A stretch of DNA of 32,000 nucleotides from an uncultured Candidatus Saccharibacteria bacterium (GCA_964481125.1 CAYZSL010000002.1:117801-149800), one strand, 5' to 3'; positions 1 to 26,529 are shown, counted from the stretch's first letter. Translations and numbers: made by a program. The notes: generated by a model from the sequence alone, not told the origin.

Positions 1-371
1 ACAATTAAGCCACAGATAACAGGAGTAAAGTTAATTAAAAGGGCGATAATAATTAATTTCGGCAAGGCTTTCTGAGCCTGATAGCCGGTAAGTCGGAGAG
101 CCGTTCCTAATCCGATAACTACCAATGCCAAAACTATAATAATGTTAGCAAAATCTCTAGTTAGTCCCCAACCGACCTCAAGGAAAGCATTATTAGCTGG
201 ATCAGTATAAGAAAGAGAAATAAAATTAGGCGAAAGAACCCAATTCAAAATATTAACAGCAAGCCATAAAAAAGCTCCGCTGATTATCCCTATAACATTA
301 AAAATCAAACCAAATATACTGGCAGCAACGCCCGATAAAGCAGTAGCAATTGCACTAACTATTGGACCCAT
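1..371 (-). CDS. Polytopic membrane protein, N-terminal part only (ORF continues past the left edge). Possibly a VirB6/TrbL-like partner of the adjacent pilin-like genes.
   Basis: Own reverse-strand translation from the ATG (complement of 369-371): MGPIVSAIATALSGVAASIFGLIFNVIGIISGAFLWLAVNILNWVLSPNFISLSYTDPANNAFLEVGWGLTRDFANIIIVLALVVIGLGTALRLTGYQAQKALPKLIIIALLINFTPVICGLI. It stays open to position 1. Several hydrophobic helices. Absent from the ORF track because it is open-ended. The functional label comes from context only. Confidence 0.6.
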   Translation of the reverse strand, partial: MGPIVSAIATALSGVAASIFGLIFNVIGIISGAFLWLAVNILNWVLSPNFISLSYTDPANNAFLEVGWGLTRDFANIIIVLALVVIGLGTALRLTGYQAQKALPKLIIIALLINFTPVICGLI

Positions 372-424
372 AAAATTAATTGTTTTATTATACCATACTA
401 CAAAAGAAAAAAGAAAGACAAATA

Positions 425-453
425 TTGGTCAAGAGCTTAAAACTTGCTATGAT
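425..453 (+). promoter_or_regulatory. Sigma70-like promoter placed for a leaderless or near-leaderless transcript of the 460..2316 gene
   Basis: TTGGTC (425-430), 17 nt spacer, TATGAT (448-453), then 6 nt (aaagca) to the ATG at 460. No Shine-Dalgarno in between. Confidence 0.4.
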
Positions 454-459
454 AAAGCA

Positions 460-2316
460 ATGAAGAAGCTGAAAGTATTTTCTTTTCTTTTGATTCTTAT
501 ATTTTCTTTATTTGCTGCTGGTTTTATTTTTGCTCAAAGACCATTAGAGATTGAATATCCTGAAGCTGGTGGTTTAAGGCCTGAAACTACTATTTTCGGC
601 CTTTCAGCATACGTAAAATATATATTTAATCTTTCAATTATTATTGCTGGATTAATAGCTTTTGCTGGTTTTGTCGCTGGTGGTATAAAATATATAACCT
701 CAACCGGCATCCCTGCTTTTAAAAAAGACGCTGGGGAACAAATGTTCGCTGCTTTTGTCGGTCTTTTGGTGCTTCTTACCTCTTATATGCTTTTAACAAG
801 TATTAACCCAGCATTAACCATGCTGGCAGGTCCGGAAATAATCAAAATCACTCCTGAATTCGTGGAAACGCCTACCCTAGAAAAAGAAACGTTATCATAC
901 ACCGAAATTCCAGTAGGCGCATTAATCCAAGAGCTTTTCCTTGAAGAGAGATTAGATAATTTAAAAACTTTTTCAAAAAAAGTTAGAGATATTTCAAATA
1001 AAATTGAACAAAAAACAAAAGAATTAAATTCTATTATCGCTCAATGCTCCTGCGACAAAGCGCACCCCAATTGTTCCGGAAACAATGAGACAAGTTGCTT
1101 AGCGGGATATTGTTCTGGAGATCCATGTCTAAACAAGAATGCAATTAAACTAAAAAGAAATGAAATTGAAGAGCTTATTAATAATGAAGAAGATGGACTT
1201 ATCTATTGGCAGAAGAAATTAGACAGAGAAATCAACGGCTCTTCCGAAGAAGAAGATGAATACATCGGCTTTAGGCAGATATATGAAGATTTGTTATCAG
1301 CTGAGGAGATGATGAAAAAATGTTCAGCAACTGCTAGCGCCAACGGTAAGCCGCAATTCTTAGTGGCCTACAAAGACTTTTGGGTTTACCAGCAGTATAT
1401 GGCAGAAAAATATATGATAGAGCAATTTTATAGGGAAAGACCTTTTGAATATATTCGTTTACCTAATCATCCTTTCGAGCCAACAACATTTTACTGCTCT
1501 GAAATGCTTTATTCTGTTGTCCCAATAGAGATTGATGAGGATTTAATCGCTGAGCTTGGAAAAGAAATAGAGATTTCCGAAGCCGCGACCTTGTGTAGCA
1601 ATGAAATTTTTATTGGTAAAGATGTTGACAGTACAGAAGAATTAGCTAGAAGGATGCTGGTTGAATTAGATGATATTAATAATAATGCCAAAGAAGAAAT
1701 AAATAATGAGATAGTTTCCACGGCCGATCCGAATGAATGTATAATTTCTACGTGTTCTTCTAATTGCCAGTGGATAGAAAAGCAGTGTATAAAGGGATAT
1801 TATTGTTGTGGTGGTTATGATGATGAAGGAAATTGTATGGAATGGTGTCCAGAGTGGGAAGATTGTAGTGAGTGCAAAACTTATCCCTGTACAGGAAGTG
1901 TTTGCCCTGGAGATCAGCCGAAGAAATCGCAGATTAATTCTCAATATAATCAAATTAAAGAGAACGATTCTGAGATATCTTCATCGTATATAGAGTTAGT
2001 AAATCTTATTCAGGAAAATGTTAGTGACAAATTCCTAAAAATATCGAATATTTTTAAGAGTTTAAGAACCGTACAAAGTCAAACTACAGCTTGTCACAAT
2101 CCCAAAGAGTCTTACATAAAACTCGAAGAAGGAAGAGAAAGCATTGTTTGGAGAGAATTTTTCCTTTGTTCTGATATTAAAGAATTTGCCACAAGAGAAA
2201 CTCCTTTCTACGATGAAGAAGGAGATGTTATAAATGATTGCTATGGCCCGACTTCAGACAACTTAGATTTTATGGATAATTTGTTCTGTTGCAAAGGTGA
2301 ATATGGGCCAGAATAA
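460..2316 (+). CDS. Secreted membrane-anchored protein: signal peptide, VirB2/TrbC-like (T4SS-pilin-like) two-helix module, and a ~480 aa cysteine-rich ectodomain
   Basis: Signal peptide MKKLKVFSFLLILIFSLFAAGFIFA. Two hydrophobic helices flank GGIKYITSTGIP...K, and the second ends LLTSINP. This is the same architecture as the 2341 and 17342 ORFs. The C-terminal part holds about 26 Cys by eye (e.g. CIISTCSSNCQWIEKQCIKGYYCCGG...CMEWCPEWEDCSECKTYPCTGSVCPG). Confidence 0.7.
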   Translation: MKKLKVFSFLLILIFSLFAAGFIFAQRPLEIEYPEAGGLRPETTIFGLSAYVKYIFNLSIIIAGLIAFAGFVAGGIKYITSTGIPAFKKDAGEQMFAAFVGLLVLLTSYMLLTSINPALTMLAGPEIIKITPEFVETPTLEKETLSYTEIPVGALIQELFLEERLDNLKTFSKKVRDISNKIEQKTKELNSIIAQCSCDKAHPNCSGNNETSCLAGYCSGDPCLNKNAIKLKRNEIEELINNEEDGLIYWQKKLDREINGSSEEEDEYIGFRQIYEDLLSAEEMMKKCSATASANGKPQFLVAYKDFWVYQQYMAEKYMIEQFYRERPFEYIRLPNHPFEPTTFYCSEMLYSVVPIEIDEDLIAELGKEIEISEAATLCSNEIFIGKDVDSTEELARRMLVELDDINNNAKEEINNEIVSTADPNECIISTCSSNCQWIEKQCIKGYYCCGGYDDEGNCMEWCPEWEDCSECKTYPCTGSVCPGDQPKKSQINSQYNQIKENDSEISSSYIELVNLIQENVSDKFLKISNIFKSLRTVQSQTTACHNPKESYIKLEEGRESIVWREFFLCSDIKEFATRETPFYDEEGDVINDCYGPTSDNLDFMDNLFCCKGEYGPE

Positions 2317-2340
2317 ATTTGTGTTATAATTTGATAACCT

Positions 2341-3387
2341 ATGTTTAAAAACCTCCCAATAATTATTTCTTTGTCTTTATTAGTTTTATTTTTGGCTAGT
2401 TTTTGTCTAGCGCTAACAGCAGAAGATCGTCCTTTAGAAGTTCCTTTGCCAGAAATCGGCTCAGAATCTGGTATAACAGCCACTCCTCTTTTGCCAGATT
2501 ATATAAAATATATTTTTAATTTTGCCGTAGTTATTTGCGGATTTGTTGCTTTCGGTGTTTTAGTTATGGGTGGCGTAAGATATGTGGCTTCTGCGGGAAA
2601 TCCCTCTACCATGTCGGATGCCAATGGCCAGATGCTCGCTGGTATTATGGGTCTAGTTATTATCCTGGGGTCTTGGCTGATCCTAAACACCATTAATCCA
2701 CAATTAAAGGTTATTAACCTTGAGTATAAAGAATCAGAATTGGTAGATGAAGGAACGGCCGAGGTTTTATTATGTAAAGATTCGGGAACAGAAAACTGTA
2801 AGCTTTTTCAAAGAAGTGTTTCTACATTAGGAGAAATAAATGGTCAGGTTAATTATATAAGATTTAATAATACAGAAGGTATAACATACGGAGCAGTTCT
2901 GCACAGCAAACAGAATTGGCAAGGCAACTGTGTTGTTTGTCTCGAAAGTGGTTGTAACATTGAAAAAGCTAATGGTGGTTATTCTATTACAGTTTTTAGA
3001 CAAGGTGATGGAGGAGGCGGAGGAGGTGTTGCAGTTACTCTTTATGAAGTGGATAGTTATAATGAATTATGTGGAACAGAATGTAAAAATAGCTGTTCTG
3101 GTTTTGGTGAGATATGCGGAGAAAAATGCATAGGATGGCAAGATTGGCTACCTGATTGGACTTGGCGAGGGGGAAAGTGTTGGCCTTTTAATGCTGGTGC
3201 ATACGAAACTACGAATATAGGTCTTTTAGAAAAAGTAAGATCATTTTATATAAATGAAAAAGGCAAGTATTTAGTAGTACGTTTTGATAAAACAAATTTT
3301 GAAGGTAATTGTGAAGTCCACCGCTATAGCTCTATGAACATCGGAGCTCAAGTAGTTAAGTCTTTAAAAGTTATCCCTATAAAATAA
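2341..3387 (+). CDS. Tandem paralog: signal peptide, VirB2/TrbC-like pilin module, and a ~230 aa cysteine-rich ectodomain with a poly-Gly tract
   Basis: The N-terminus aligns with the previous ORF: RPLEV.LPE.G, YIKYIFNF, GGVRYVASAGNPS, SWLILNTINPQL. About 12 Cys lie in the ectodomain, plus GDGGGGGGV. Extended -10 TGtTATAAT at 2322-2330, 10 nt before the ATG. Confidence 0.7.
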   Translation: MFKNLPIIISLSLLVLFLASFCLALTAEDRPLEVPLPEIGSESGITATPLLPDYIKYIFNFAVVICGFVAFGVLVMGGVRYVASAGNPSTMSDANGQMLAGIMGLVIILGSWLILNTINPQLKVINLEYKESELVDEGTAEVLLCKDSGTENCKLFQRSVSTLGEINGQVNYIRFNNTEGITYGAVLHSKQNWQGNCVVCLESGCNIEKANGGYSITVFRQGDGGGGGGVAVTLYEVDSYNELCGTECKNSCSGFGEICGEKCIGWQDWLPDWTWRGGKCWPFNAGAYETTNIGLLEKVRSFYINEKGKYLVVRFDKTNFEGNCEVHRYSSMNIGAQVVKSLKVIPIK

Positions 3388-4109
3388 GATTTTGTTAAAT
3401 TCATCCAATCTTTCAAACCAAGGGTTTCAGCCCTTTGAGAAGGTTGGATTTTGTTTTTCAAAAGCCAATTTTCTACATTTTTTTTGTCTATTTTTAAACC
3501 TCGAGAAAGATTGTTTATCAATTGCTTTCTAGGCTGGCAAAATCCAGCCTTAACGATTTTAAAGAATAAATCTCTTTTTTCAGAATAGGCGTAATTTGAA
3601 AGGCAGGGAGAAATTTTAATAACAGCAGAGTCAACTTTCGGTACAGGCCAGAATGATTTTCTGGAAATATAGCTGACAATTTCTACTTTAGCGTAAGCCT
3701 GAACAGAAACAGCTAAAATGCTCATTTTCGGAGGACTGGCGCAGATTCTTTGTCCTACTTCTTTTTGGACAACCAAAACCATTTGTTGGGGAGGATTATC
3801 AATAGCCTCAAGAAAGCGGCGGATAACAGGAGCAGTTAAATAAAAAGGGAGATTAGCCACTATCTTATAGTTTTTAAACTCAGGAATAAACTTTAGAATG
3901 TCTTTATTAATGATTTCTAAGTTTTTATTATTAAAGCTTTCTTTTAGCAGTTCAACCATATTCTTGTCTTTTTCTACAGCAATCACTTTTTTAACCTTTT
4001 GAACTAGTTCTTTAGTCAAAACTCCTAGGCCCGGCCCTATCTCCAAAACCAAATCTTCCGAATTCAAGTCAGCTGCCTTAATAATCTTTTTAATTGCTCT
4101 GCTGTCCAC
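3348..4109 (-). CDS. rsmA: 16S rRNA (adenine1518/1519-N6)-dimethyltransferase RsmA/KsgA. The ORF as tracked starts at GTG just downstream of an in-frame TAG (see finding).
   Basis: SAM-binding motif LEIGPGLGVLTKEL, NLPFYLTAPVI and overall KsgA/Erm layout. Stop is TGA (complement of 3348-3350). The same frame continues upstream to an ATG at 4203-4205 and is interrupted only by TAG at 4119-4121. Confidence 0.85.
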   Translation of the reverse strand: MDSRAIKKIIKAADLNSEDLVLEIGPGLGVLTKELVQKVKKVIAVEKDKNMVELLKESFNNKNLEIINKDILKFIPEFKNYKIVANLPFYLTAPVIRRFLEAIDNPPQQMVLVVQKEVGQRICASPPKMSILAVSVQAYAKVEIVSYISRKSFWPVPKVDSAVIKISPCLSNYAYSEKRDLFFKIVKAGFCQPRKQLINNLSRGLKIDKKNVENWLLKNKIQPSQRAETLGLKDWMNLTKSYFIGITFKDLTT

Positions 4110-4290
4110 TAAAAAGTTCTACCCCAGTCTTTTTAGGGGCTTAATTCGCTCGCTTTTCAGAAGATTTTTAATATTTTTCTTGTAAGATAAGTCCATTAAA
4201 GGCATTTTAGCATCATTTTACGGTGTGGAAAACCTGAGCTTTTTGCCCTTGACTTCCTCCACGGAAAGGGTAACCTTAAAGAAGTTTATA

Positions 4291-5391
4291 ATGATTGATT
4301 ATCTGAGTATTAACAAGCTGTTTAATATCGTTTGCAAAAAAACCAAGGGTTCTATAAAGACCCCTTGTATTTGTATGGGCATAATCGCTCTTTTTTTATT
4401 TGTTTTTGTCAGTTTCAGCCCTGCTTTGGTTTTAAATTCTTTTGCCGACAAAAGCGACCCTTGCTTGGTTGAGGAAGATGTCCAGGAAAGCAACTTATTT
4501 TGTGCTCCGATAAAAAGCTTTTCGCCAGAATCCCCAGAATTTGTTTTAATTGGGAATAGTAGCATGATAGCTTCCACTCCTCCGAATACTTTCTCCTCCC
4601 AGGTTTTAGGAGCTTTGGTTATAGGCTATGAATCAGAAGACGTTAAAAAAGTGATTACTGAGTATATTGTTGAAGAAGGAGATACTTTATGGTCTTTGGT
4701 TGAGGAATTCAATATTTCCATGAATACCATTCTTTGGGCCAACGATTTAAGCGAAAACTCAATAGTCAAGCCGGGCCAAAAGCTGGTTATTCTGCCAGTT
4801 TCTAGTTTGGTTCATCACGTAAAATCAGGAGATACTATATCCAGCATCGCCCAAACTTACAAGGGCAAGACAGAAGAAATAATTGCTTTTAACGATCTGG
4901 CTAATGAAAATGCTGTCTATATCGGGGACATTATTATTGTTCCTAATGGTGCGATGCCTTCTGTTATTGTCCAAGAGCAGCAGGCTCCCAGTAGCGTTCC
5001 TTTAGCCAGCAGCTATTTTATCTGTCCTCACGCAGCTTGCCACATCACTCAATGGCTTCACTGGTATAATGCAATTGATTTTGACGGCAAGTGCGGAGAT
5101 CCGATTAGAGCTGCAGCAGCTGGTACGGTTTTGAAGGTACAACTGACAAGCTCTACTTCCCGTTGGGCTTTTGGAGGCGCTGGCAATCACATAACAATAT
5201 TGCATCTCAATGGGGTGGTAACAATGTACGGCCATCTTTCCGCCAGCTTGGTAAATCCGGGAGATGTCGTTTCTCAAGGACAAATTATCGCTTTAATGGG
5301 TGGTCAGCCAGGAACGCCTGGGGCAGGGCTTTCAACCGGTTGTCATGTTCATTTTGGAGTGACAGGCGCTATAAACCCTTTTAACAGATAA
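4291..5391 (+). CDS. Secreted peptidoglycan hydrolase: signal/TM segment, two LysM domains and an M23 (LytM-type) metallopeptidase domain
   Basis: LysM repeats YIVEEGDTLWSLVEEFNISMNTILWANDL...GQKLVILP and HHVKSGDTISSIAQTYKGKTEEIIAFNDL...IGDIIIVP. M23 motifs GNHITILH...YGHLS...GQIIALMG and GCHVHFGV. The ORF track begins at GTG 4225. ATG 4291 (MIDYLS...) or the later MGIIALFLF are likelier starts, so the start is uncertain. Confidence 0.8.
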   Translation: MIDYLSINKLFNIVCKKTKGSIKTPCICMGIIALFLFVFVSFSPALVLNSFADKSDPCLVEEDVQESNLFCAPIKSFSPESPEFVLIGNSSMIASTPPNTFSSQVLGALVIGYESEDVKKVITEYIVEEGDTLWSLVEEFNISMNTILWANDLSENSIVKPGQKLVILPVSSLVHHVKSGDTISSIAQTYKGKTEEIIAFNDLANENAVYIGDIIIVPNGAMPSVIVQEQQAPSSVPLASSYFICPHAACHITQWLHWYNAIDFDGKCGDPIRAAAAGTVLKVQLTSSTSRWAFGGAGNHITILHLNGVVTMYGHLSASLVNPGDVVSQGQIIALMGGQPGTPGAGLSTGCHVHFGVTGAINPFNR

Positions 5392-5552: not shown

Positions 5553-5927
5553 CTATTTTCCTTCGCACTTCATACAAAGCCTGGCCGCAGGATAAACTTT
5601 CAGTCTTTCTTTATCTATTTCTTCTTTGCAGTTTTCGCACTTGTCGTAATTACCTTTTGTTATTTTATCTAAAGCCAGATTAATGTCTTTTAGCTGGTTT
5701 TCCAGATTGTATTCCAGGGGCAAAAGAGTACTGTATTCTTCCACTTCGTCAGCTGCTTTTTCCAGAGCGGCTGAGCCCGATTCGCCGCTGTCAAAGCTGG
5801 GAAAGCGGGTATCCCAGTCTCCCTTGACCCTGTCGTCTTTCTTGGCGATTTTCTCAAGCTGTGATTCAATATTCTTTTTTTCCTGTTCTAACTTTTCTTT
5901 TAGCTGATTCAGCAGTTTTTTGTCCAT
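5553..5927 (-). CDS. DksA/TraR-family C4 zinc-finger protein
   Basis: C-terminal CENCKEEIDKERLKVYPAARLCMKCE (CxxC-x17-CxxC) preceded by a coiled-coil-like acidic region. Its ATG overlaps the stop of the upstream GH3 gene (TAATG). Confidence 0.75.
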   Translation of the reverse strand: MDKKLLNQLKEKLEQEKKNIESQLEKIAKKDDRVKGDWDTRFPSFDSGESGSAALEKAADEVEEYSTLLPLEYNLENQLKDINLALDKITKGNYDKCENCKEEIDKERLKVYPAARLCMKCEGK

Positions 5928-7885
5928 TACATTAAGCTGTTTTTAATATTAATAATCTTAAATATGGCTGCTTCTACCTTATCTTTGGATATTTCTCCGT
6001 TTCTGAACGCTTCAGCGAAAGCATCCAGGCCTTCGGCAACGCCTATTTCCCATCCAGAAAAAAACATGACATCAGCCCCAGCTTCAATCGGTTTTGTCAC
6101 AATATCCTTTAAAGAGAATTTGTCTGAAAGATAGGTTTGCGCCAAATCGTCTGTCATAATTATTACTTTTGAGCCCAAGTTATTCTTTAAATACTGGATG
6201 GCTTTTGGAGAAAAGGCAAAAGGCATAGAAGAATCCAGATTGGTATACACCATATTAGCAGTCATGACGAATTCTGGATTGGCTTGAATTGCTTTTTTAA
6301 ATTGGGATATTGTAGGCAACGTGCTTGTCTCAGCCAAGGATTCTTCGGGATTAAAAGTAATTCCAGAGTACCCAGGGAAGTGCTTCATAGCAGTCAGAAT
6401 GCCAGCGCCCTTCTGGCCGTCAATGAAAGATTTTGCCAAATTGCCTGAAGTTAGCGCATCCTTTTCAAAAGTTCTGTCGAAAAGAAAATCTTCTTCTCCG
6501 ACCTGGTCCAAAAGTGGAGCCAGATTGAGATTTATTCCCAATTCTTTCAATTCCTGGCCTCTCACTGAACCTATTTGAAAAGCCTGGTCAACTGATTCAA
6601 TTTCCGACTGGGCAGTTTTCTCCTGGAGAAAGTCTATTCTGGAAATAGTGCCGCCCTCCTGGTCAACAGCGACAAAAAGAGGCAGGCCGGTTTCCTGCAA
6701 AGAAAGAATCTGCAGATCGCCAATGAGTTTTTTCAGTTGCTCCTCGTTCTCAATGTTTTTTGACAGCAAAAGAATGCCTCCTGGCCTGTATTTTTTAAAG
6801 AAATCTGCCAGCTCAGTCGTTAAAGCGATTCCGTCAAATCCGACAATGAATAGCTGGCCGATTTGTTTTTCCAGTTTTGCCGCATCTGCTGCCTCAAACG
6901 TTTTTTTCATGCTTTCAAAAGAGGTGGCAAAAATAAAGTAATCATCAAGCAGAGCGTAGCAGATTCCGAAATCTTCTTTGGAAATGGTCAGAAATCTGAA
7001 GCTTTTTCCCTGGTAAGAGCTGTTTTTGAAAGAAGAAGCCAGGGCTTTAGTTTCTTTGCCCAGGGCAGCAAAGAGGATTTCAGTATCTGCTTCCATTGTC
7101 ATTTCCCAAGAAATCATTAAGTGAGAAATGTCTCCCTTTGTTTTTGTCATAAAGCCCAGGCGGTTAACTCCCTTGATTGAGTAGATAAACAAAGTAAAGT
7201 CATCTTCTAATCCGAATGAAACTTCTTCTGGAATTTTCATCGCAAAAGCTCCAAGAAATTCATTTAAACCGACAATTTTGTTTTCTGCCGTATTCTGGAA
7301 TAGAATCCTTGTATATCCATCCTCATAGGTTTTTTGCATAATCTGGGAAAACATCTGGGGAATGGCTGCTGCATTCGTGATCTCCATGGTTTCGGTAGAG
7401 CCAGCTGAAATTAAGGAAGCAGGAATAACAATTTTTGGTTTCTCGACGACTTCTTCGGTCGGCGTGGTTTCTGTTGTGATTTCTGTTTCCGGTTTGGCTA
7501 TTTCTCCTTTGGGCAATTTGCCTACAGTAAAAAGCCAGTAGAAAAAACCAACAAGAAGTAAAATAATAACAACAGCTGATATTCTGATCAGGATTTTTTT
7601 GAAAGAAGATGATGGTTTTTGCGTTTGGGGAATTAAGGTTTGGGGAGCTTCTTCTACGGCTGCTTCTTTTGGTAAAGCAGCGCTTTCTCTCGGCAAAAGA
7701 ATCCCTGGTTTTTCTGTTGGCGCTTCTTTTTTCACTTCCCCCAAAGCAGCCACTCTTGTTTTTTCTTTTTCAGCTTCTCCTTCCCTCAGTTTGGCAAGGT
7801 CTCTTTGCATTGTTTTTGCCTCGCCCCTTTTTAAAAACTCAAGCATTTCTTCTTTGTTTTCTTCTGGCTGAGGATTGTTTTCCAT
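5927..7885 (-). CDS. Membrane-anchored glycoside hydrolase family 3 (NagZ-like) protein with a long N-terminal extension of unknown function
   Basis: Charged N-terminus, one TM helix (ILIRISAVVIILLLVGFFYWLF) and a ~200 aa unassigned domain. GH3 N-domain motifs follow: QLFIVGFDG, PGGILLL, PLFVAVDQEGGTISR, MKHFPGYSG, VIIMTDDL. Confidence 0.7.
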   Translation of the reverse strand: MENNPQPEENKEEMLEFLKRGEAKTMQRDLAKLREGEAEKEKTRVAALGEVKKEAPTEKPGILLPRESAALPKEAAVEEAPQTLIPQTQKPSSSFKKILIRISAVVIILLLVGFFYWLFTVGKLPKGEIAKPETEITTETTPTEEVVEKPKIVIPASLISAGSTETMEITNAAAIPQMFSQIMQKTYEDGYTRILFQNTAENKIVGLNEFLGAFAMKIPEEVSFGLEDDFTLFIYSIKGVNRLGFMTKTKGDISHLMISWEMTMEADTEILFAALGKETKALASSFKNSSYQGKSFRFLTISKEDFGICYALLDDYFIFATSFESMKKTFEAADAAKLEKQIGQLFIVGFDGIALTTELADFFKKYRPGGILLLSKNIENEEQLKKLIGDLQILSLQETGLPLFVAVDQEGGTISRIDFLQEKTAQSEIESVDQAFQIGSVRGQELKELGINLNLAPLLDQVGEEDFLFDRTFEKDALTSGNLAKSFIDGQKGAGILTAMKHFPGYSGITFNPEESLAETSTLPTISQFKKAIQANPEFVMTANMVYTNLDSSMPFAFSPKAIQYLKNNLGSKVIIMTDDLAQTYLSDKFSLKDIVTKPIEAGADVMFFSGWEIGVAEGLDAFAEAFRNGEISKDKVEAAIFKIINIKNSLM

Positions 7886-10028: not shown

Positions 10029-10535
10029 TTATCTTGCTTTTAATAAATATTTATCCAGGTTTTTTTCCAAATCAATGAATTCGTCAACCGATTCTTTCAG
10101 CTTGGAAGAAGATGACTTGCCAAAAGCAACAACCTCAACTCTTTTACCCTGGTTTTTCAAATATTCCACCAATTGCAGGAAATCGCCGTCCCCTGAGCAC
10201 AAAACAATGGCATCGCAGCTCTGGGAGATTCTTATAGCGTCAACCGTAATGCCGACATCCCAGTCAGCTTTTTTCAATCCTCCGAAAAACTCCTGCAAAT
10301 CTCTGACCCTGGTTTCAATGCCCAGTTTTATCAAAGCTTCAAAAAAAGGCTTTTCTTCCCCTGTTTTTGTTTTGACAACATAAGCAAAAGCCCTGATTAA
10401 GTTCCTGTTGGAAACAGCCACTTTTAAAATGGCTCCGAAGTTAACCCTGGCGCCATGCAGATTTTTAGCAGAATGGTAAAGATTTTGAACGTCGATCAAT
10501 ACGGCCACTCTTTGGCCCGAATGTTTGATTACCAT
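10029..10535 (-). CDS. NYN-domain (LabA-like) predicted ribonuclease
   Basis: VAVLIDVQNLYHSA, DVGITVDAI, DAIVLCSGDGDFLQLVEYLKNQGKRVEVVAF. Sits 2 nt after rpsO and 1 nt before pnp. Confidence 0.75.
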   Translation of the reverse strand: MVIKHSGQRVAVLIDVQNLYHSAKNLHGARVNFGAILKVAVSNRNLIRAFAYVVKTKTGEEKPFFEALIKLGIETRVRDLQEFFGGLKKADWDVGITVDAIRISQSCDAIVLCSGDGDFLQLVEYLKNQGKRVEVVAFGKSSSSKLKESVDEFIDLEKNLDKYLLKAR

Positions 10536-17341: not shown

Positions 17342-17746
17342 ATGAAAAAAAGATTAACAATATTATTGGTTTTCTTCGGTCTATTCCTGTCTTTTATCGT
17401 AGCACGGGCCCAATCAGAAGGACTTGTTCCTTGCGGAGGGCCGGGTCAAGAGGCGTGCAAGCTTTGCGATATTTTCCTGATGTTCGATAGAATTGTTGAT
17501 TTCGTCATGATAACTCTTGTGCCGCCGCTGGCTGCCTTGATGCTGGTTATCGGCGGAGTGATGTTTTTCTTTTCCGCCGGAGATACTGGCGGGCTGACTA
17601 AGGCAAAAAGCGTTTTAACTTCCGTGATTTTCGGCCTAGTCATAGTTTACGGCTCCTGGCTATTAATCAATTCTTTTTTCCTGGTAATTGGCGTAAGCGA
17701 ATGGACTGGTTTAGAGCAAGGCTGGTTTAGTTATCCTTGTCACTAA
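17342..17746 (+). CDS. Small VirB2/TrbC-like T4SS-type pilin (CPR-type)
   Basis: Signal peptide, GLVPCGGPGQEACKLCD, helix, GGVMFFFSAGDTGGLTKAK, helix ending GSWLLINSFF. 134 aa. Starts 12 nt after the clpP stop. Confidence 0.7.
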   Translation: MKKRLTILLVFFGLFLSFIVARAQSEGLVPCGGPGQEACKLCDIFLMFDRIVDFVMITLVPPLAALMLVIGGVMFFFSAGDTGGLTKAKSVLTSVIFGLVIVYGSWLLINSFFLVIGVSEWTGLEQGWFSYPCH

Positions 17747-19537: not shown

Positions 19538-19557
19538 AAAGTTCAATAAATTTCGTT

Positions 19558-19631
19558 TGGTCGGGGCATCCAGATTTGAACTGGAACTAAATCCTCCCAA
19601 AGGACTCGTGCTACCGTTACACTATGCCCCG
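19558..19631 (-). tRNA. tRNA-Pro (anticodon TGG), CCA encoded
   Basis: Reverse complement: CGGGGCA/TGCCCCG acceptor (C1:G72), A73, CCA. Anticodon loop TTTGGGA, T arm TCCAG-TTCAAAT-CTGGA. 74 nt. Confidence 0.88.
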
Positions 19632-19697
19632 TTCATTCCCATTCTAGTAGAACTTACTCTTTTGGTCAATTTTCTAGTATGGTATACTAATATAATA

Positions 19698-20645
19698 ATG
19701 ATTGGTAAAAAAATTCTTGAACAACTGAATATTATTAAGCAATGCAGGAAATATAGCTTGTCTGTTTGGCAGTGCCCCCAGTTTCTTTTCCTGATAATGG
19801 GCATAATTATTATTGTATCTTCCTTGCTTACTTATGCTATCGGCAACCGCTACATTGAGGATCCGCTTTTGGTCGCTTTGATAGTTATTGCCGTCAGCAT
19901 TGTCCTGCTTATAATTGCGGCAACCATTACCCGTAGTTTTGAAACTCTGGCAGAAACAAACAGGATGAAATCAGAGTTTGTCAGCATTGTTTCCCATCAG
20001 CTTCGCTCGCCCCTCTCTAACTTAAAATGGGTTATTGAGCTTTTGATGTCTGGCAAAGTTTGTCCGGTTGCAGAAAAGCAGACAGAATACTTCAGAATGT
20101 TAAAAGAAAACAGCAAGAGAATGGACGAGCTTGTTTCTGATTTACTGACTGTTTCTAGAATAGAACAAGGTAGGTTGCCTCTGCAAAAAGAAAAAACCTC
20201 TTTTAAAGATTTAGTTGAAAAAATAATCAAAGAAACTGAAATTTTAGCCAAAGCGTCCAACGTTGAAGTAGAATTCAATCCGGCAGACAATCTGCCCGAC
20301 ATTATCTTCGATCCGTCGCAGCTTAAGTTGTCCGTCGCTAACCTTTTGGAAAATGCCATTCGCTATGCAAAAGCAAAAGGAAACGTGAAAATAGGCTTAA
20401 AGAAGAAAAACAGCAAGCTTTACTTTGAGATAAAAGACAGCGGAGTGGGCATTCCCGAAAAAGACCAAAAATATATTTTTCAGAGGTTTTTCCGTTCTGA
20501 AAACGCAAAAAAGCGTCAAACCGAAGGATCAGGCCTCGGTTTATACATTGCCAAATCAATTATTGAAAAATCAGGCGGTAAAATAGGATTTAACTCTAAG
20601 GAAAATAAAGGGTCGACGTTTTGGTTCACCTTGCCAATAAAATAA
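19698..20645 (+). CDS. Sensor histidine kinase with two TM helices and almost no extracytoplasmic loop
   Basis: HisKA H-box SIVSHQLRSPLS. HATPase N, G1 and G2 boxes LLENAIRYA, DSGVGIP, GSGLGLYIAKSIIE. The track start 19557 runs through the reverse complement of tRNA-Pro, so ATG 19698 (MIGKKILEQ) is preferred. Confidence 0.85.
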   Translation: MIGKKILEQLNIIKQCRKYSLSVWQCPQFLFLIMGIIIIVSSLLTYAIGNRYIEDPLLVALIVIAVSIVLLIIAATITRSFETLAETNRMKSEFVSIVSHQLRSPLSNLKWVIELLMSGKVCPVAEKQTEYFRMLKENSKRMDELVSDLLTVSRIEQGRLPLQKEKTSFKDLVEKIIKETEILAKASNVEVEFNPADNLPDIIFDPSQLKLSVANLLENAIRYAKAKGNVKIGLKKKNSKLYFEIKDSGVGIPEKDQKYIFQRFFRSENAKKRQTEGSGLGLYIAKSIIEKSGGKIGFNSKENKGSTFWFTLPIK

Positions 20646-20650
20646 ATATT

Positions 20651-21019
20651 ATGAAAACAATTCTTTTTGTTGAAGACGAATTCACTCTCCAAAAGACCCT
20701 CGGGGAAGTTTTAACCAAAGAAGGCTACCAGGTAATTTCCGCTCTAGACGGAGAAATAGGATTGAGAATGGCGAAAGAAAAAAAACCAGATTTAATCTTG
20801 CTTGATTTGATTTTGCCGAAAATGAACGGATTTGAGGTTTTGAAAAAGATAAAAGAAGACGAGGCAATCAAAGACATACCGATAATCGTTTTAACCAATC
20901 TTGAAGGAATGGAAGACATACAAAAGGCTTTGGAACTGGGAGCAGCCACTTATTTGGTGAAAGCGAATTATAGCCTGGAAGAAGTACTGGAGAAAATAAA
21001 AAAGACTATCAACGAATAA
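20651..21019 (+). CDS. Single-domain (CheY/PilH-like) response regulator receiver
   Basis: MKTILFVEDE, KPDLILLDLILPKMNG (phospho-acceptor Asp), PIIVLTN, YLVKA. No output domain. ATG 20651 is preferred over the track start 20621. Confidence 0.88.
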   Translation: MKTILFVEDEFTLQKTLGEVLTKEGYQVISALDGEIGLRMAKEKKPDLILLDLILPKMNGFEVLKKIKEDEAIKDIPIIVLTNLEGMEDIQKALELGAATYLVKANYSLEEVLEKIKKTINE

Positions 21020-21032
21020 CAACAATTTATCA

Positions 21033-22787
21033 ATGAGAGTAGAGCCGCAACAATTAAAAGCTTTTCTTTTGGATGCCAAATTAACTACTGAAAAGCAGTT
21101 TAATGAGGTTCAGAAAGAAGCTGAAAAGAAAGGCCAGAAAGTCCAGGACGCTTTAGTCTGCAAAGGAGTCATTTCACAAGAAGAGATGATTAAGATGGAA
21201 GCGTATATCTTGGGTATTCCTTTTGTCGATTTGGAAAGGGAAAAGATTGATGATGAAATCCTGAAGATTATTCCTGAACCGATCGCTCGTTCCAACAATA
21301 TTGTTGCTTTCAGGAAAAAAGGAAAAGATTTGGAGGTGGCTATGCTTGATCCAGAAGACCTGGGAACGATTGATTTTATCAAAAAAACCGCTGATTTTAG
21401 GATTTTGCCGAGATTAACCACTCCACAAGGCATTAAAAACGTTCTTCTGCAATATCAGAAGAGTTTGGAAGCTGAGTTTGGAGATATAATAAAAAAAGAG
21501 GCCGGCGGAATCAAAACAGTCAAAGACAGTGCTTTAACAGAAAAAGGAGAGGTCGAGGATTTAAAAAAAGCAGCTGAAGATCTGCCGGTAATCAAGATTA
21601 TTGACACTCTTTTGAAACACGCTATTTTAGGCAGAGCTTCAGATATTCATATTGAACCGACCAGAAAGGAAGTAATAGTCAGATACAGGATTGACGGCAT
21701 ATTAAGGGATGCCATGGTTCTGCCGAAACAGGCCAGTTCAGGAATCGTTGCCAGAATAAAAGTCTTATCCAATTTAAAACTTGATGAACATAGACTGCCC
21801 CAAGACGGCCGTTTCAGGGTTGAAGCAGAAGACTACAAGTTTTCAATTCGTGTTTCTATTCTGCCGGTTTTTGACGGAGAGAAAGTGGTAATGAGGCTTT
21901 TGTCGGAAACAGCTAAAGCATTTACTTTAGAACAGCTTGGGCTGAGGGGAGAGTCGTTGGAATTCATTCAGGACAATTTGAGAAAGCCGATCGGCATGAT
22001 TTTAGTAACCGGCCCCACTGGCTCTGGTAAAACCACTACCTTATATTCAATGATGGAAATTTTAAACAGTCCGGCTATAAACATTTCAACCATTGAAGAT
22101 CCTATTGAGTATAGAATGCCGAGAATCAATCAGACCCAGGTGAACGCCAAAATCGGATTGACTTTCGCTTCCGGACTCCGTTCTTTGGTCAGGCAGGATC
22201 CTGACGTAATTATGGTCGGTGAAATCAGAGACAATGAAACCGCAAGCTTGGCCATCAACGCTGCTTTAACCGGCCATCTGGTTTTGTCCACCTTGCATAC
22301 TTCTTCAGCTGTCGGCGCCATGCCCAGGCTTATCGATATGAAAGTTGAACCGTTTTTAATCTCTTCGACCCTGAATGTTGTTTTGGCTCAAAGATTAGTC
22401 AGGCGGCTTTGCGAGGAGAAAGAAAAATACAATTTAAAAGACTCTGAAATAAAAAATCTTAAAAAATACTGCGACTTGGACAGAATCTTAAAAGCATTGA
22501 AAGAAGAAAAAATAATAAAGGAAGACCAAAATTTGAAAGATGTTACTTTTTACCGGCCGAAAATCACCAAAGATTCTCCCGAAGGATACCAGGGCAGGCT
22601 GGGGATTTACGAAGTGTTGCCGGTTACCGAAACCATAAAGGAATTAATAGTAAAAGAGGCTGATGCTGAACAAATACAAAAACAGGCTTTGCAGGAAGGC
22701 ATGAGAACAATGGTTGAAGACGGCTTCCTAAAGGCAGCGCAAGGCATTACTTCAATCGAGGAAGTTTTAAGAGTAGCAGTAGACTAA
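21033..22787 (+). CDS. pilB: Type IV pilus assembly ATPase (PilB/GspE family)
   Basis: N-terminal GspE-N-like region, Walker A GPTGSGKTT, Asp box, Walker B VIMVGEIRD, His box TGHLVLSTLHT. Only two Cys sit where many PilB/GspE proteins carry a tetracysteine Zn site. Confidence 0.92.
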   Translation: MRVEPQQLKAFLLDAKLTTEKQFNEVQKEAEKKGQKVQDALVCKGVISQEEMIKMEAYILGIPFVDLEREKIDDEILKIIPEPIARSNNIVAFRKKGKDLEVAMLDPEDLGTIDFIKKTADFRILPRLTTPQGIKNVLLQYQKSLEAEFGDIIKKEAGGIKTVKDSALTEKGEVEDLKKAAEDLPVIKIIDTLLKHAILGRASDIHIEPTRKEVIVRYRIDGILRDAMVLPKQASSGIVARIKVLSNLKLDEHRLPQDGRFRVEAEDYKFSIRVSILPVFDGEKVVMRLLSETAKAFTLEQLGLRGESLEFIQDNLRKPIGMILVTGPTGSGKTTTLYSMMEILNSPAINISTIEDPIEYRMPRINQTQVNAKIGLTFASGLRSLVRQDPDVIMVGEIRDNETASLAINAALTGHLVLSTLHTSSAVGAMPRLIDMKVEPFLISSTLNVVLAQRLVRRLCEEKEKYNLKDSEIKNLKKYCDLDRILKALKEEKIIKEDQNLKDVTFYRPKITKDSPEGYQGRLGIYEVLPVTETIKELIVKEADAEQIQKQALQEGMRTMVEDGFLKAAQGITSIEEVLRVAVD

Positions 22788-22798
22788 ATTAAAAACAT

Positions 22799-24019
22799 AT
22801 GCCTATTTATAATTATTTCGCCAAATCCTTAAAGGGAGAAGAGAAATCAGGGATAGCCCAGGCTAAAGACAAAAAAGAGCTCTCCCAAATTTTAAAAGAC
22901 CAAGGTTTTATTTTAATCCGAGCCGGAGAAAAAGAAGAATCAGCAAAAAAAAGCAAATCTGTCAGTTTATTTTCTTTCGGCGGGAAAGTTCCCCTGACCG
23001 AAAAATTAATTTTCACCAGAAACCTCCAGGTAATGATAAGTTCTGACCTTGCTTTGCCCAAAGCTCTCGAAACTTTAGCTTTACAGACGAAAAACAAAAA
23101 ATTCAAAGAAGCTATTCTAGATATCAGCAATGAGATTATTAAGGGAAACAATTTTTCTGAAGCTTTGACAAAATACCCCCAGATTTTCTCAGGACTTTTC
23201 CAGAACATGGTGAAGGTCGGGGAAGAAGCCGGCAACCTTGACGAAGTGTTGAAGATTCTGGCTCTGCAATTGGAAAAGGAAAACGAGCTGAAGTCAAAGA
23301 TAAAAAGCGCCATGATGTATCCAGTAGTAATAATTTCGGCAATGATCGGCATAGGTATTTTGATGCTGATTATGGTTGTGCCGAGTCTGGCTGATACTTT
23401 TGAGGAATTGGAAATTGAATTGCCCCTTACCACCCAAATAGTAGTCGGTTTGGGAACGTTTTTGGCTACTAATTGGCTTCTCGTTCTTTTGGGCATTATT
23501 TTCCTTGTTTTCATTTTGTCTTTCACTCCGAAAATTAAAAAAGGCAAAAGAGTGATGGACGCTTTATTTTTGAAAATTCCGGTTATTTCTACTTTGGTAA
23601 TAAAAACTAACTCTGCTCAGGCTATTAGGACCTTGGGTTCTTTGATTTCTGCTGGCGTGCCGATTATAAGATCTTTAAAGGTTACTTCAGACGTACTGTC
23701 TAATATTTATTACAAGGACGCTCTTTTGGTAGCTATGGAGAAAGTCAAAAAAGGAGAAAAGCTTTCAGATGCTTTGAGTCCTTATGAAAATATATTTCCT
23801 TTGGTTGTTATCCAGATGATTAAAGTTGGCGAAGAAACCGGCAAAACAGCGCCCATTTTGACCAAATTGGCCGACTTTTTCGAGGAAGAAATAGATTACG
23901 CTACCAAGAATTTAGTTTCCGTTATTGAACCTGTTTTAATGATTATGATCGGAGCTGCTATCGGCTTTTTTGCTATCTCAATGATCCAGCCGATGTACTC
24001 CATGTTGGGCGCAATTTAA
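22799..24019 (+). CDS. pilC: Type IV pilus platform protein (PilC/GspF family)
   Basis: Duplicated GspF domains (FTRNLQVMISSDLALPKALE and AIRTLGSLISAGVPIIRSLK), three TM segments, 406 aa. Confidence 0.92.
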   Translation: MPIYNYFAKSLKGEEKSGIAQAKDKKELSQILKDQGFILIRAGEKEESAKKSKSVSLFSFGGKVPLTEKLIFTRNLQVMISSDLALPKALETLALQTKNKKFKEAILDISNEIIKGNNFSEALTKYPQIFSGLFQNMVKVGEEAGNLDEVLKILALQLEKENELKSKIKSAMMYPVVIISAMIGIGILMLIMVVPSLADTFEELEIELPLTTQIVVGLGTFLATNWLLVLLGIIFLVFILSFTPKIKKGKRVMDALFLKIPVISTLVIKTNSAQAIRTLGSLISAGVPIIRSLKVTSDVLSNIYYKDALLVAMEKVKKGEKLSDALSPYENIFPLVVIQMIKVGEETGKTAPILTKLADFFEEEIDYATKNLVSVIEPVLMIMIGAAIGFFAISMIQPMYSMLGAI

Positions 24020-24498
24020 TGAAAAATCAGAATTCAAAAGCTTTTACATTCGTTGATGTTTTGATTGGCGTCAGTTTGCTGCTGATTATTTTTATTAGCA
24101 TTTTCGGCGTTTTTCAATTGACCTCGAAAATAATCGTCCTCTCAAAGAACAAAATTACTGCTGCCTCAGTTGCTAACGAAGAAATAGAAAAGATAAGGAA
24201 TCTTGTTTATTCTTCGGTTGGTATTATTAATGGCGCTTTGCCGACAGCTGTCGGTATTTTATCTTCAACGAGTACCGTTGCCTTAAATAACGTTGATTAT
24301 TTTATTGAAAGGAAGATTGAATATATTTCAGACGAAGCTGACGGAACCGGAGGCGCAGACAGCTGCGATTTGGATTACAAGCGGGTTGATATTAGAGTCT
24401 CTTGGCAGAGTCGGTTTCCCGGAGAGATAAAAATGGTCACTGATATATCTCCGCAAAGCAAAGACGAAGAACTTGCTTCTTGTCAGGCTCAGCCATAA
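24019..24498 (+). CDS. Pseudopilin-like protein with degenerate class III signal (minor pilin candidate)
   Basis: MKNQNSKAFTFVDVLIGVSLLLIIF has A-FTFVD in place of G-FTLxE, then a hydrophobic helix. ATG overlaps the pilC stop (TAATG). Confidence 0.6.
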   Translation: MKNQNSKAFTFVDVLIGVSLLLIIFISIFGVFQLTSKIIVLSKNKITAASVANEEIEKIRNLVYSSVGIINGALPTAVGILSSTSTVALNNVDYFIERKIEYISDEADGTGGADSCDLDYKRVDIRVSWQSRFPGEIKMVTDISPQSKDEELASCQAQP

Positions 24499-24506
24499 TA
24501 ATTTTT

Positions 24507-25106
24507 ATGAAAAAAGGATTTACTCTCGTTGAAACCATGGCCACTATCGCTGTTTTTGCCTTGGCTATTGGCCTTGTTGTCGGCTTGATTGTTATGACCT
24601 ATAGGACATACGGACAAACTTGGCAAAAGTCTTCAACTACCAACGAAGCAAGGAAAGCTATTGAAACAATGGTTCAGGAAATCAGAAAGGCCAGATCCGG
24701 AGAAGACGGTTCTTATCTTCTTGGAAAGGCTGATGATGGAGAATTAATAATCTATTCAGATATCAACAAAGACAGCAGTATTGAAAGGGTCAGATATTTT
24801 TGGCAGGCCGGAGAAGCGACTAACAGTTTTAAAAAGGGGGTGACAGAACCCTTCAATAACGAAGGAGTCATCAGCTATCCCTTGGATCAGGAACAGATTG
24901 AAAATTTAAGCTCTTTCGTTTGTAATGACCTGCCTGTTTTCAGATATTTTGACAGCAATAATCAGGAGATAGCGGAACTTGGCAGTCGCATCCTTAATAC
25001 AAGGCTGATCCAGGTTTATTTAGCCATCAATGCTGATCCGGACAATCCCTCTCAGAATTTTGAATTATTGTCTTCAGCTCAGATAAGAAATTTAAAAGAA
25101 GAGTAA
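24507..25106 (+). CDS. Type IV prepilin (canonical class III signal); candidate major or minor pilin
   Basis: MKKGFTLVETMATIAVFALAIGLVVG carries the G/FTLVE cleavage-methylation motif. ATG 24507 is preferred over the track start 24480. Confidence 0.8.
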   Translation: MKKGFTLVETMATIAVFALAIGLVVGLIVMTYRTYGQTWQKSSTTNEARKAIETMVQEIRKARSGEDGSYLLGKADDGELIIYSDINKDSSIERVRYFWQAGEATNSFKKGVTEPFNNEGVISYPLDQEQIENLSSFVCNDLPVFRYFDSNNQEIAELGSRILNTRLIQVYLAINADPDNPSQNFELLSSAQIRNLKEE

Positions 25107-25107
25107 T

Positions 25108-26514
25108 ATGCCAAAAGGAATAATCACTACATACGCTTTGGTTTTCGGAGCCATATTCACCATATTGCTTGCCAGTATTGTCGGGGTTGTTTTGCTGCAG
25201 TTAAAACAAGCTAATCAGAGATTGGCCTGGAATCAGGCTCTGCACACAGCCGAAGCCGGCCTCCATTATTACAGATGGTGTTTGAATAACGCGGTTGAAG
25301 ATAATTGCCAGCTTGAAAAGGAGCATTTTGATATTGAGGGTAATCCATTGGGAGAATTTTTTCTGGAAGATTTCACCAATTATGCCTGTGGAGAAATGGT
25401 TTCCAGGAGAATATATTCTACTGGCTGGGCTAACAAGTTCCCTGATACCCAGAGGAAGATAAGCATGTTTTATTCCAGATCTTCCATAACCGGATTTTCC
25501 TATTTGACCAACACCAATGTTTGGGTAGAATCAGGTACGCAGGTAAAAGGAGTATACCGTTCCAATGCCGGTATAAGAATGGATGGAGAAAACAAATCTT
25601 CGGTTCTTTCAGCTACCAGTTCTTGGCTTTGCACCGCTTCTTACGGGTGCGATTATTTAAGCTGTCCTACTGATTGTTCTCGGGAGGGCTCATCTTGCCG
25701 CTGCCCGGGGATTTTTACCACCACCAAGGAATCTAATCCCGATTTATTTTCTTTTCCTGTCGAGTATTTTAATTTTGATGCAATTACCATAGACTTGAGA
25801 GCGATAAAAGACATTACCATTAGCCATCCCTTGCAGTATTACTGGCCGCCGGTAACAGAGGTTGATCCTATTGGTTTGGGATACCATCTTAAGTTTTTGA
25901 CAACTGGCGGGTTTGAAGTATGGATTATTACCGATTTAACTTCAACTTATTCTTACAGCGCAGAAGAAGGTTGGCATTATGACTCTTTTATAATCAGCGG
26001 GGAGTATCGTTACGGCGGTACGATTTTCACAGACCCTGATTGTGGGCTTATCTTTGTTGAGGATAATCTTTGGGTAAACGGGGAGATAAACGGAAAAGTA
26101 ACAATTGCTTCAGCAGACCTGATTAGTCCGAGTAAAGATACAAGCATTATTTTGCCAGGCGATATTTATTACGATAATCAGAGCGGCTCTTGCGGGCTAG
26201 CGTTAATCACCGAAAAAAATATTTTAATCGCTCCTAATGCTCCAAGTCAAATGGATATGTTCGGCATTTTCGTTGCCCAAAAAGGGCGCTTTGGCATAAA
26301 CCATTATCCTTCAAATCTTAAGAATAAGCTGAAGATAACTGGTTCAATAGTCAGCAGCAATAGAATCAGGATTAATTGGGCTTCCGGGGGATCAATAATA
26401 TCAGGCTTCAAAATTTACGAACACAAAGTTGACTTAAATGTAATTTACAGTCCGCCTCTCTTTGTTCCCTATACCGGTTCTGACTTCAGAATTGTCGGCT
26501 GGGAGGAAATATAA
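25108..26514 (+). CDS. Large PilX-N-like pilus-associated protein (candidate tip or minor pilin) with a Cys-rich patch
   Basis: N-terminal helix YALVFGAIFTILLASIVGVVLL, then QALHTAEAGLHYY, which resembles the PilX N-terminal motif. CTASYGCDYLSCPTDCSREGSSCRCPG has 7 Cys in 27 aa. 468 aa. Confidence 0.55.
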   Translation: MPKGIITTYALVFGAIFTILLASIVGVVLLQLKQANQRLAWNQALHTAEAGLHYYRWCLNNAVEDNCQLEKEHFDIEGNPLGEFFLEDFTNYACGEMVSRRIYSTGWANKFPDTQRKISMFYSRSSITGFSYLTNTNVWVESGTQVKGVYRSNAGIRMDGENKSSVLSATSSWLCTASYGCDYLSCPTDCSREGSSCRCPGIFTTTKESNPDLFSFPVEYFNFDAITIDLRAIKDITISHPLQYYWPPVTEVDPIGLGYHLKFLTTGGFEVWIITDLTSTYSYSAEEGWHYDSFIISGEYRYGGTIFTDPDCGLIFVEDNLWVNGEINGKVTIASADLISPSKDTSIILPGDIYYDNQSGSCGLALITEKNILIAPNAPSQMDMFGIFVAQKGRFGINHYPSNLKNKLKITGSIVSSNRIRINWASGGSIISGFKIYEHKVDLNVIYSPPLFVPYTGSDFRIVGWEEI

Positions 26515-26529
26515 TAAAATATCAATATA

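Follow-up and report, generated by a model that had tools for sequence, protein, structure and literature searches.

Introduction

Tandem arrays of VirB2-like pilin genes near virB4, dnaA and ksgA are known in the Patescibacteria (Quinonero-Coronel et al., 2025, PMC12102498). In Paceibacteria they belong to a monoderm-type, relaxase-less chromosomal type IV secretion system (T4SS) near dnaA and ksgA, and the tandem genes are divergent in sequence, with a mean identity of 25% and a maximum of 54% (PMC12102498). The VirB2-like pilin array is essential in Ca. Southlakia epibionticum (PMC10633639), and it is an open question what Patescibacteria use this essential, relaxase-less system for (PMC10633639, PMC12857230). 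Here we describe a locus of this type in a 32,000-nucleotide stretch of DNA (hereafter, the window) from an uncultured Candidatus Saccharibacteria bacterium (GCA_964481125.1 CAYZSL010000002.1:117801-149800), in which two adjacent genes, ORF1 and ORF2, encode proteins with a predicted pilin module of the same family at the N-terminus and a large cysteine-rich region at the C-terminus. The locus type and the pilin module were known already; absent from the papers that we searched are a VirB2-type pilin with a large globular head and the swapping of such heads across the family.

Every conjugative pilus solved so far has both the N- and the C-terminus on the exterior of the tube (10.64898/2025.12.18.695078), and a recent preprint makes the case that Gram-positive T4SSs have VirB2-like pili in general. 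A first-pass annotation of the window, made from the sequence alone, knew of no characterised T4SS pilin with the architecture of ORF1 and ORF2, and the literature that we searched agrees: we found nothing describing it in work on Patescibacteria pilin-head fusions, VirB2 fusions or tip adhesins, and pilin-head fusions are mentioned neither in the main text and figure supplement of the Patescibacteria survey (PMC12102498) nor in a 2025 T4SS review (PMC12857230).

Results

ORF1 (460..2316, + strand, 618 residues) and ORF2 (2341..3387, + strand, 348 residues) are separated by 24 bp and share an N-terminal module. BLASTP aligned residues 10-122 of ORF1 with residues 13-125 of ORF2 without gaps, with 44 of 113 positions identical (39%, E=2e-25), and detected no significant similarity beyond these 113 residues. 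What follows the module is 493 residues with 26 cysteines in ORF1, and 221 residues with 12 cysteines and a GGGGGG tract in ORF2. These counts bear out the first-pass annotation, which had described a near-colinear module followed by complete divergence into about 480 residues with about 26 cysteines and about 230 residues with about 12 cysteines and a Gly6 tract, and whose quoted module motifs, RPLE(I/V)..PE.G, Y(V/I)KYIFN, GG(I/V)(K/R)Y(I/V).S.G.P and (Y/W).L(L/I).(S/T)INP, are all present. By sequence comparison the two heads are unrelated to each other; kinship between them was considered and rejected, as only chance cysteine-rich matches at E>=0.77 were found. The annotation had also reported the two-helix module alone in a 134-residue ORF at 17342, and this too holds: the ORF resembles ORF2 across the module's second half (42% identity over 45 residues, E=2e-9), and a module-derived profile matches exactly three ORFs in the window, namely ORF1, ORF2 and the ORF at 17342.

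Two Pfam families bear on the identity of the module, PF18895 (T4SS_pilin, the VirB2-like pilins of the candidate phyla radiation, CPR; curated cut-off 26.6 bits) and PF04956 (TrbC/VirB2; cut-off 27.9 bits). PF18895 is the CPR-specific family that the first-pass annotation had pointed to, and the LVPCG..C..C signature it associated with that family is present in the 17342 ORF. PF18895 matched ORF2 above the cut-off, at 29.2 bits for the full-length protein and 32.1 bits for the isolated N-terminal module, and also the 17342 ORF, at 27.3 bits. We place ORF1, where the PF18895 match spans residues 55-113, in the same family because of its 39% identity to ORF2, the precomputed PF18895 matches on four of its homologues, and the PF18895 matches of 41 of the 51 proteins with an ORF1-type ectodomain (E<=0.001). 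Among the modules of 16 relatives, 15 match PF18895 and two match PF04956 (both at E<=0.01). Below their thresholds, PF04956 matched the 17342 ORF (20.4 bits, E=6e-4) and ORF2 matched NCBIfam NF045849, a pilin-like conjugal transfer protein of mycoplasma integrative and conjugative elements (E=2e-4). About ten short PF18895 proteins also bear precomputed PF04956 matches, and one source names its protein a VirB2 pilin. As far as sequence profiles can tell, ORF1 and ORF2 belong to the CPR T4SS_pilin family and not to canonical TrbC/VirB2, to which a distant kinship is plausible.

Hydropathy windows and AlphaFold2 (AF2) models of both proteins gave a signal peptide followed by two hydrophobic helices joined by a short loop. 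The ORF1 signal peptide lies at 460..534 (+ strand, residues 1-25; hydrophobic window, residues 1-29), and is probably cleaved after an F-A pair (..IFA/QRPLE): F24 and A25 are invariant in the ORF1 family, and Q26 is nearly so. The pilin module proper (535..819, + strand) comprises an N-terminal extension, residues 26-47 (LE..YP..G), and a two-helix hairpin, residues 48-120, ending in INPxL; the ORF2 hairpin lies at 2497..2709 (+ strand, residues 53-123). In the AF2 models the helices span residues 48-80 and 85-115 of ORF1 and residues 53-83 and 88-118 of ORF2, and a low-confidence linker of ~20-25 residues separates hairpin from head in both. The pilin module is the most conserved part of ORF1, with ~70% mean identity against ~50% for the head. 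Because a signal peptide and two membrane helices precede them, the C-terminal heads of both proteins should lie outside the cell, as the first-pass annotation proposed, and not in the cytoplasm; this placement agrees with the extracytoplasmic domain types that occupy the same position in relatives (M23, VanY, SLT, CBM and beta-gamma-crystallin).

The ORF2 head (2761..3384, + strand, residues 141-348) is modelled as two beta-gamma-crystallin domains joined by the Gly6 linker, with a cysteine-rich insertion in the second domain. Foldseek searches of the PDB matched the model to bovine gammaF-crystallin (1a45; E=5.4e-4, probability 1.00, target template modelling (TM) score 0.64, 216 columns) and to single domains of the microbial beta-gamma-crystallins 3hzb, 2kp5 and 1nps (target TM scores of 0.65-0.75). 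Confidence was high across most of the first crystallin domain (predicted local distance difference test, pLDDT, 84-91), and the Greek-key signature F-x-x-x-N-F-x-G is readable in the sequence (for example, RFDKTNFEG). Two serines are conserved, S215 invariantly and S341 in >=90% of sequences. ORF2 itself did not match Pfam Crystall (PF00030) at E<=10; two relatives (P0040 and P0041) did, at 26.6 and 29.6 bits (cut-off 25), and also matched Inhibitor_I36. On the strength of the model, the ORF2 head is a two-domain beta-gamma-crystallin fold.

The ORF1 ectodomain begins with a neck (889..1179, + strand, residues 144-240) predicted to consist of a beta-strand, a 32-residue helix and a cluster of six cysteines, C196, C198, C205, C213, C218 and C223, at a pLDDT of ~90. 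C198, C205, C218 and C223 are invariant in 51 proteins, and C196, C213 and P222 are found in >=90%. The head proper (1180..2313, + strand, residues 241-618) combines an alpha/beta region, long helices, a cysteine-rich beta-hairpin block (residues 421-485) and a low-confidence, cysteine-containing tail; model confidence is good for residues 144-350 and 386-555 (pLDDT ~75-98). Structure comparison, which gave a fold for the ORF2 head, gave none for this one: Foldseek returned no match in the PDB or BFVD (best E 0.66 and 0.08), and outside the pilin module ORF1 matched nothing in Pfam, NCBIfam or the PDB sequences. Most of the 26 cysteines are kept in homologues down to 31% identity, which fits structural disulfides outside the cell. 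A full HMMER scan with the ectodomain alone yielded 64 matches among 1.84 billion cluster representatives, and nearly all full-length matches begin at residues ~130-140 of proteins of 500-770 residues, directly behind a pilin module. The ORF1 head appears from this distribution to be a rare cysteine-rich domain found almost only behind the pilin module.

Many of the ectodomain matches cover only the first ~110 residues, corresponding to the neck, and behind pilin and neck the relatives carry different heads: Peptidase_M23 (six proteins), a lysozyme-like SLT_3 domain, Peptidase_C39_2 or CBM_4_9. Relatives of ORF2 add VanY heads. One pilin-neck-M23 fusion (locus L003) lies in a T4SS locus, one small gene downstream of virB4; a tandem pair of 462-residue pilin fusions (L004) adjoins yidC and rnpA; and a VanY fusion (L005) lies in a different context. 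Headless proteins of 131-134 residues with the LE..YP...INPQL module also exist and end ~10 residues past INPQL, while intermediates of 200-234 residues carry small heads; in the profile search, typical PF18895 proteins have 105-234 residues. One such headless LE..YP...INPQL protein is encoded as the pilin of the T4SS locus L009, which adjoins dnaA, and the module is therefore a genuine locus pilin that acquired heads. One pilin scaffold with interchangeable heads looks like a modular way to present wall-binding or wall-cutting domains at the T4SS contact site.

The genes around ORF1 and ORF2 place them in a T4SS locus. At the left edge of the window (1..371, - strand), divergent from ORF1, are the first 123 residues of a polytopic membrane protein that the first-pass annotation had suggested to be a VirB6/TrbL-like channel component. 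The exact ORF1 protein occurs on a 9.3-kb metagenome contig (L001) that reaches left of the window, and from this we recovered the full gene, encoding 729 residues with a hydrophobic N-terminal ~330 and a hydrophilic C-terminal ~400. A precomputed PF19590 (TrbL_3) match is on record for this protein; direct hmmscan returned nothing. We assign it as VirB6/TrbL-like, in line with the suggestion, because its syntenic ortholog in locus L007 (40% identity, E=2e-128) matches PF04610 (TrbL/VirB6) above the cut-off, at 27.1 against 25.9 bits. Further left on L001 lie two small genes, a PrgI/VirB3-like gene (34.7 bits), a TraC-like gene (a weak precomputed match, with none in direct hmmscan) and a VirB4-type ATPase (P-loop_TraG, 55 bits; GSGKSY Walker A), so that T4SS genes do stand left of position 1, where the annotation had proposed to look for them.

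The order of these genes is conserved. VirB4, TraC-like, PrgI and VirB6-like genes lie immediately left of the pilins in L001, L002 and L007, on one strand, with the two pilin genes on the other. On the related 539-kb contig L002 the full order is dnaA-rnpA-yidD-yidC-jag, then 137 aa-VirB4-175 aa-PrgI-156 aa-104 aa-VirB6, then, divergently, ORF1-ORF2, followed by rsmA and LysM-M23 genes (unnamed genes are given by product length in amino acids, aa). L007 keeps this order though its ORF1 ortholog is only 35% identical, and of four further loci with fusions that were inspected, three keep the fusion genes adjacent to VirB6 and VirB4. The 10 kb examined showed neither a relaxase nor a coupling protein. 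Four small conserved genes of the locus (104-105, 156, 137 and 175 residues; L001 3041..3358 and 2509..2979, L002 3522..3935 and 5757..6284) match no family significantly; the place of the 104-residue one is taken by a Band_7/SPFH protein in L003 and L007. The source names of homologues assign the lineage to Paceibacteria/Nealsonbacteria, and one source labels an ORF2 relative merely "pilin". In one ORF1 homologue (P0004) the called start adds 84 N-terminal residues and reads into the region of the opposite-strand VirB6 gene, probably a mis-called start in the source assembly.

The divergent intergenic region between the VirB6-like gene and ORF1 (372..459, 88 bp) holds one promoter-like match, at 426..453 (+ strand), which is no evidence of function, as promoter- and terminator-like matches in 1..4300 are no commoner than in shuffled sequence. 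At its 3' end ORF2 overlaps the convergent rsmA/ksgA gene (3348..4109, - strand) by 40 bp (3348..3387), and no terminator-like site was found between the two. G+C content is ~0.35 in the pilin-fusion region (1..4000) and 0.39-0.45 over most of the next 25 kb, a difference that could stem from unlike constraints or from a later origin of the DNA encoding the heads. Beyond rsmA/ksgA lies a gene for a LysM-LysM-Peptidase_M23 wall hydrolase (4225..5391, + strand; Pfam LysM 82 bits, M23 73 bits), and the same gene adjoins rsmA and the T4SS locus in L002, L007 and L009 as well. M23 and LysM domains are reported in VirB1 homologues of Patescibacteria (PMC12102498), and this hydrolase is possibly a T4SS accessory with a VirB1-like role.

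The stand-alone pilin at 17342..17746 (+ strand, 134 residues), of the LVPCG..C..C subtype, lies between clpP and the RNase Y gene, just upstream of a type IV pilus cluster, and occupies the same position on two further contigs (L011 and L012). Its cysteines are near both ends (C31, C39, C42 and C133) and, speculatively, could tie the termini by a disulfide, much like the cyclisation of TrbC/VirB2. The type IV pilus cluster (21033..28712, + strand), which is complete and distinct from the T4SS, encodes PilB (T2SSE, 416 bits), PilC (T2SSF), an N-methyl pseudopilin, PilM, PilN and an unassigned 179-residue ORF; two ORFs beside the pseudopilin (159 and 468 residues) have no Pfam match. Upstream of the cluster is a histidine kinase and response regulator pair (19557..21019). 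Two distinct surface-filament systems are thus encoded within 30 kb. Elsewhere in the window, 29281..30414 encodes a secreted protein of 377 residues with two internal repeats (..DETADWQTYRDEEYGIEFKYPLDW.. and ..DETANWKVYKDEYYGLEIKYPQDW..), the first of which has a PsbP_2-like match. Two proteins have apparent NYN-type domains: that at 10029..10535 (- strand) keeps its synteny with rpsO and pnp in relatives, whose counterpart protein bears a precomputed NYN match, and that at 30515..31009 (+ strand) was assigned by reading its sequence.

Discussion

We suggest, with somewhat more confidence than doubt, that ORF1 and ORF2 are pilins of the VirB2-like type whose modular, disulfide-bonded heads are exposed outside the cell, either on a pilus or at the surface, to engage the host envelope. 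None of the three outcomes that the first-pass annotation had named as telling against its reading was seen: PF18895 matched the module, the topology puts the heads outside, and the left-flank gene is VirB6/TrbL-like with further T4SS genes beyond it. A Sec signal peptide would export each protein, and the two-helix hairpin would insert with both ends outside, leaving at the C-terminus a disulfide-bonded extracellular head, the predicted double beta-gamma-crystallin in ORF2 and the six-cysteine neck with its unmatched head in ORF1. The VirB6/VirB4 machine would then handle the hairpins like ordinary pilins. Were the module to join a VirB2-type assembly built on VirB6, the heads would be displayed on the fibre, given the exterior position of both termini in solved pili. 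They would sit on the outside of a short pilus, most plausibly on tip or minor subunits and possibly along its length, where they could bind or act on the host cell envelope.

Several observations weigh against this. The PF18895 match to ORF1 scores 17.5-20 bits, under the cut-off, and neither ORF1 nor ORF2 matches PF04956, which leaves the link to canonical VirB2/TrbC weak. A module profile aligned by hhalign with the A. tumefaciens VirB2 sequence (8cue) gave a probability of 0.4%, no signal, and the module-alignment profile found no pilin among PDB sequences, only chance helical-hairpin matches; nor was there a pilin among the top 50 Foldseek matches to the ORF2 model. The inter-helix loop, read from the sequence, lacks a clear positive charge. 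The only short pilin in the window is of another subtype, and 14 kb separate it from the T4SS locus. As to head function, reading ORF2 by eye for the calcium-binding motif N/D-N/D-x-x-S/T-S finds the serine, with no obvious acidic/amide pair. Polymerisation and head function are drawn from sequence, locus and models, and no pilus has been seen in this organism. Finally, by a rough estimate a head of 25-55 kDa on each subunit may be hard to pack in a five-start VirB2-type tube, and because of this crowding we favour a role as tip or minor subunits. By analogy with the outer domains of flagellins the fusions could possibly form a decorated homopolymer; in this lineage they are the only pilins inside the locus.

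Other arrangements would account for much of the same evidence. The hairpin may have been co-opted as a two-helix membrane anchor, holding heads on the surface of a wall-poor, ultrasmall cell and never entering a filament, with T4SS linkage reflecting co-regulation or a role in or near the channel. VirB2-like proteins are required in many T4SSs that have no visible pilus (PMC12857230), the heads are large at 221 and 493 residues, M23, VanY and SLT heads would work equally well as anchored exoenzymes, and the linker between hairpin and head was modelled at low confidence. We nonetheless consider anchored exoproteins rather unlikely: the hairpin and N-terminal extension are the most conserved parts, beyond the needs of a simple anchor, headless versions of the module are the locus pilin in relatives, and the adjacency to VirB6 is tight and conserved. 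That the T4SS_pilin likeness is instead a chance or compositional match, and that these are unrelated surface proteins beside a T4SS locus, is largely refuted and highly improbable. Helical hairpins are low in information, and the ORF2 hairpin was also matched by Foldseek to HtrII and ATP synthase subunit c; weak Pfam matches to Htr2 and tetraspanin were seen as well. But ORF2 scores above the curated PF18895 cut-off, most relatives match the same family (15 of 16 modules and 41 of 51 fusions), the pilin genes adjoin VirB6 and VirB4 in three of four further fusion loci, and sequence similarity is continuous to short pilins that also match TrbC.

The module might also serve as a leader for export and tethering, with the head cut off near INPxL and released in soluble form while a mature short pilin stays behind. 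C-terminal processing of TrbC/VirB2 offers an analogy for such release. The junction is strongly conserved, with N116, P117 and L119 invariant among the twelve homologues of ORF1 and P117 alone among non-cysteine residues invariant in all 51 fusion proteins; headless pilins of the ORF1/ORF2 subtype stop just past this point; the INPxL motif is missing from the short LVPCG-type pilin of the window; and in ORF1 and ORF2 the low-confidence linker comes after it. No protease or cleavage motif was identified, though, and a conserved INPxL could simply terminate the second helix. We regard tethered pro-proteins as improbable, more so than anchored exoproteins.

Displayed, modular pilin heads would matter beyond this pair of genes. 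We offer, more tentatively than the reading of ORF1 and ORF2 themselves, the broader possibility that VirB2-type pilins of Patescibacteria are polymerisable carriers, in which the hairpin and an optional six-cysteine neck have repeatedly captured binding or wall-degrading domains, with the T4SS fibre or fibre tip as the means of recognising and breaching the host envelope. The peptidoglycan hydrolases and carbohydrate-binding modules among the heads of relatives point to a system that acts on the host wall directly, not one that transfers DNA. If true, these would be the first members of the VirB2 family to carry globular outer domains, and would explain in concrete terms why epibiotic growth requires the T4SS and its pilin array; the genes give a testable handle on the function of this system.

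The closest known relatives are the VirB2-like arrays of Patescibacteria, including that of Ca. Southlakia epibionticum ML1 (PMC12102498): these share the Pfam family (PF18895), the arrangement as tandem divergent genes, here 39% identical, and the same chromosomal monoderm-type T4SS locus with VirB4, PrgI/VirB3 and VirB6 near dnaA, rnpA and ksgA. They differ in that the published pilins are treated as small, whereas ORF1 and ORF2 bear heads of 493 and 221 residues, and the heads of their relatives are enzymes or binding domains. Canonical VirB2/TrbC/TraA pilins (PF04956; the T-pilus, 8cue/8exh, and the F-pilus) resemble the module in their signal peptide, two hydrophobic helices, short loop, ends outside and gene beside VirB6/VirB4; unlike ORF1 and ORF2, with which they have no significant match, they have ~70-120 residues when mature, are in many cases cyclised or acetylated, and lack a globular domain. 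Microbial beta-gamma-crystallins (Protein S, Flavollin 3hzb, Hahellin 2kp5; Crystall/Inhibitor_I36) share the paired Greek-key fold predicted for ORF2, which differs from them in its fusion to a T4SS pilin, the cysteine-rich insertion in its second domain and several conserved cysteines. In searches of Pfam, NCBIfam, the PDB and Foldseek, neither ORF1 nor ORF2 matched VirB1 or VirB5 in sequence or fold. Functional overlap with VirB1-type hydrolases is possible, as relatives of ORF1 carry M23 and lysozyme-like heads on the pilin-neck scaffold inside T4SS loci, and a tip location of ORF1 or ORF2 would mimic VirB5 tip proteins.

A conserved polymerisation module joined to a variable exposed domain is familiar from other filaments: FimH and PapG of chaperone-usher pili, the minor pilins CofB and GspK, and flagellins with variable outer domains. 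These follow a logic like that of ORF1 and ORF2, but with unrelated folds and assembly machines and no homology, and two-domain tip adhesins such as FimH and core-plus-outer-domain flagellins would be the closest working analogies. ORF1 and ORF2 would extend the VirB2 family from minimal hairpins to headed, modular pilins, as in type IV pilins, chaperone-usher adhesins and flagellins.

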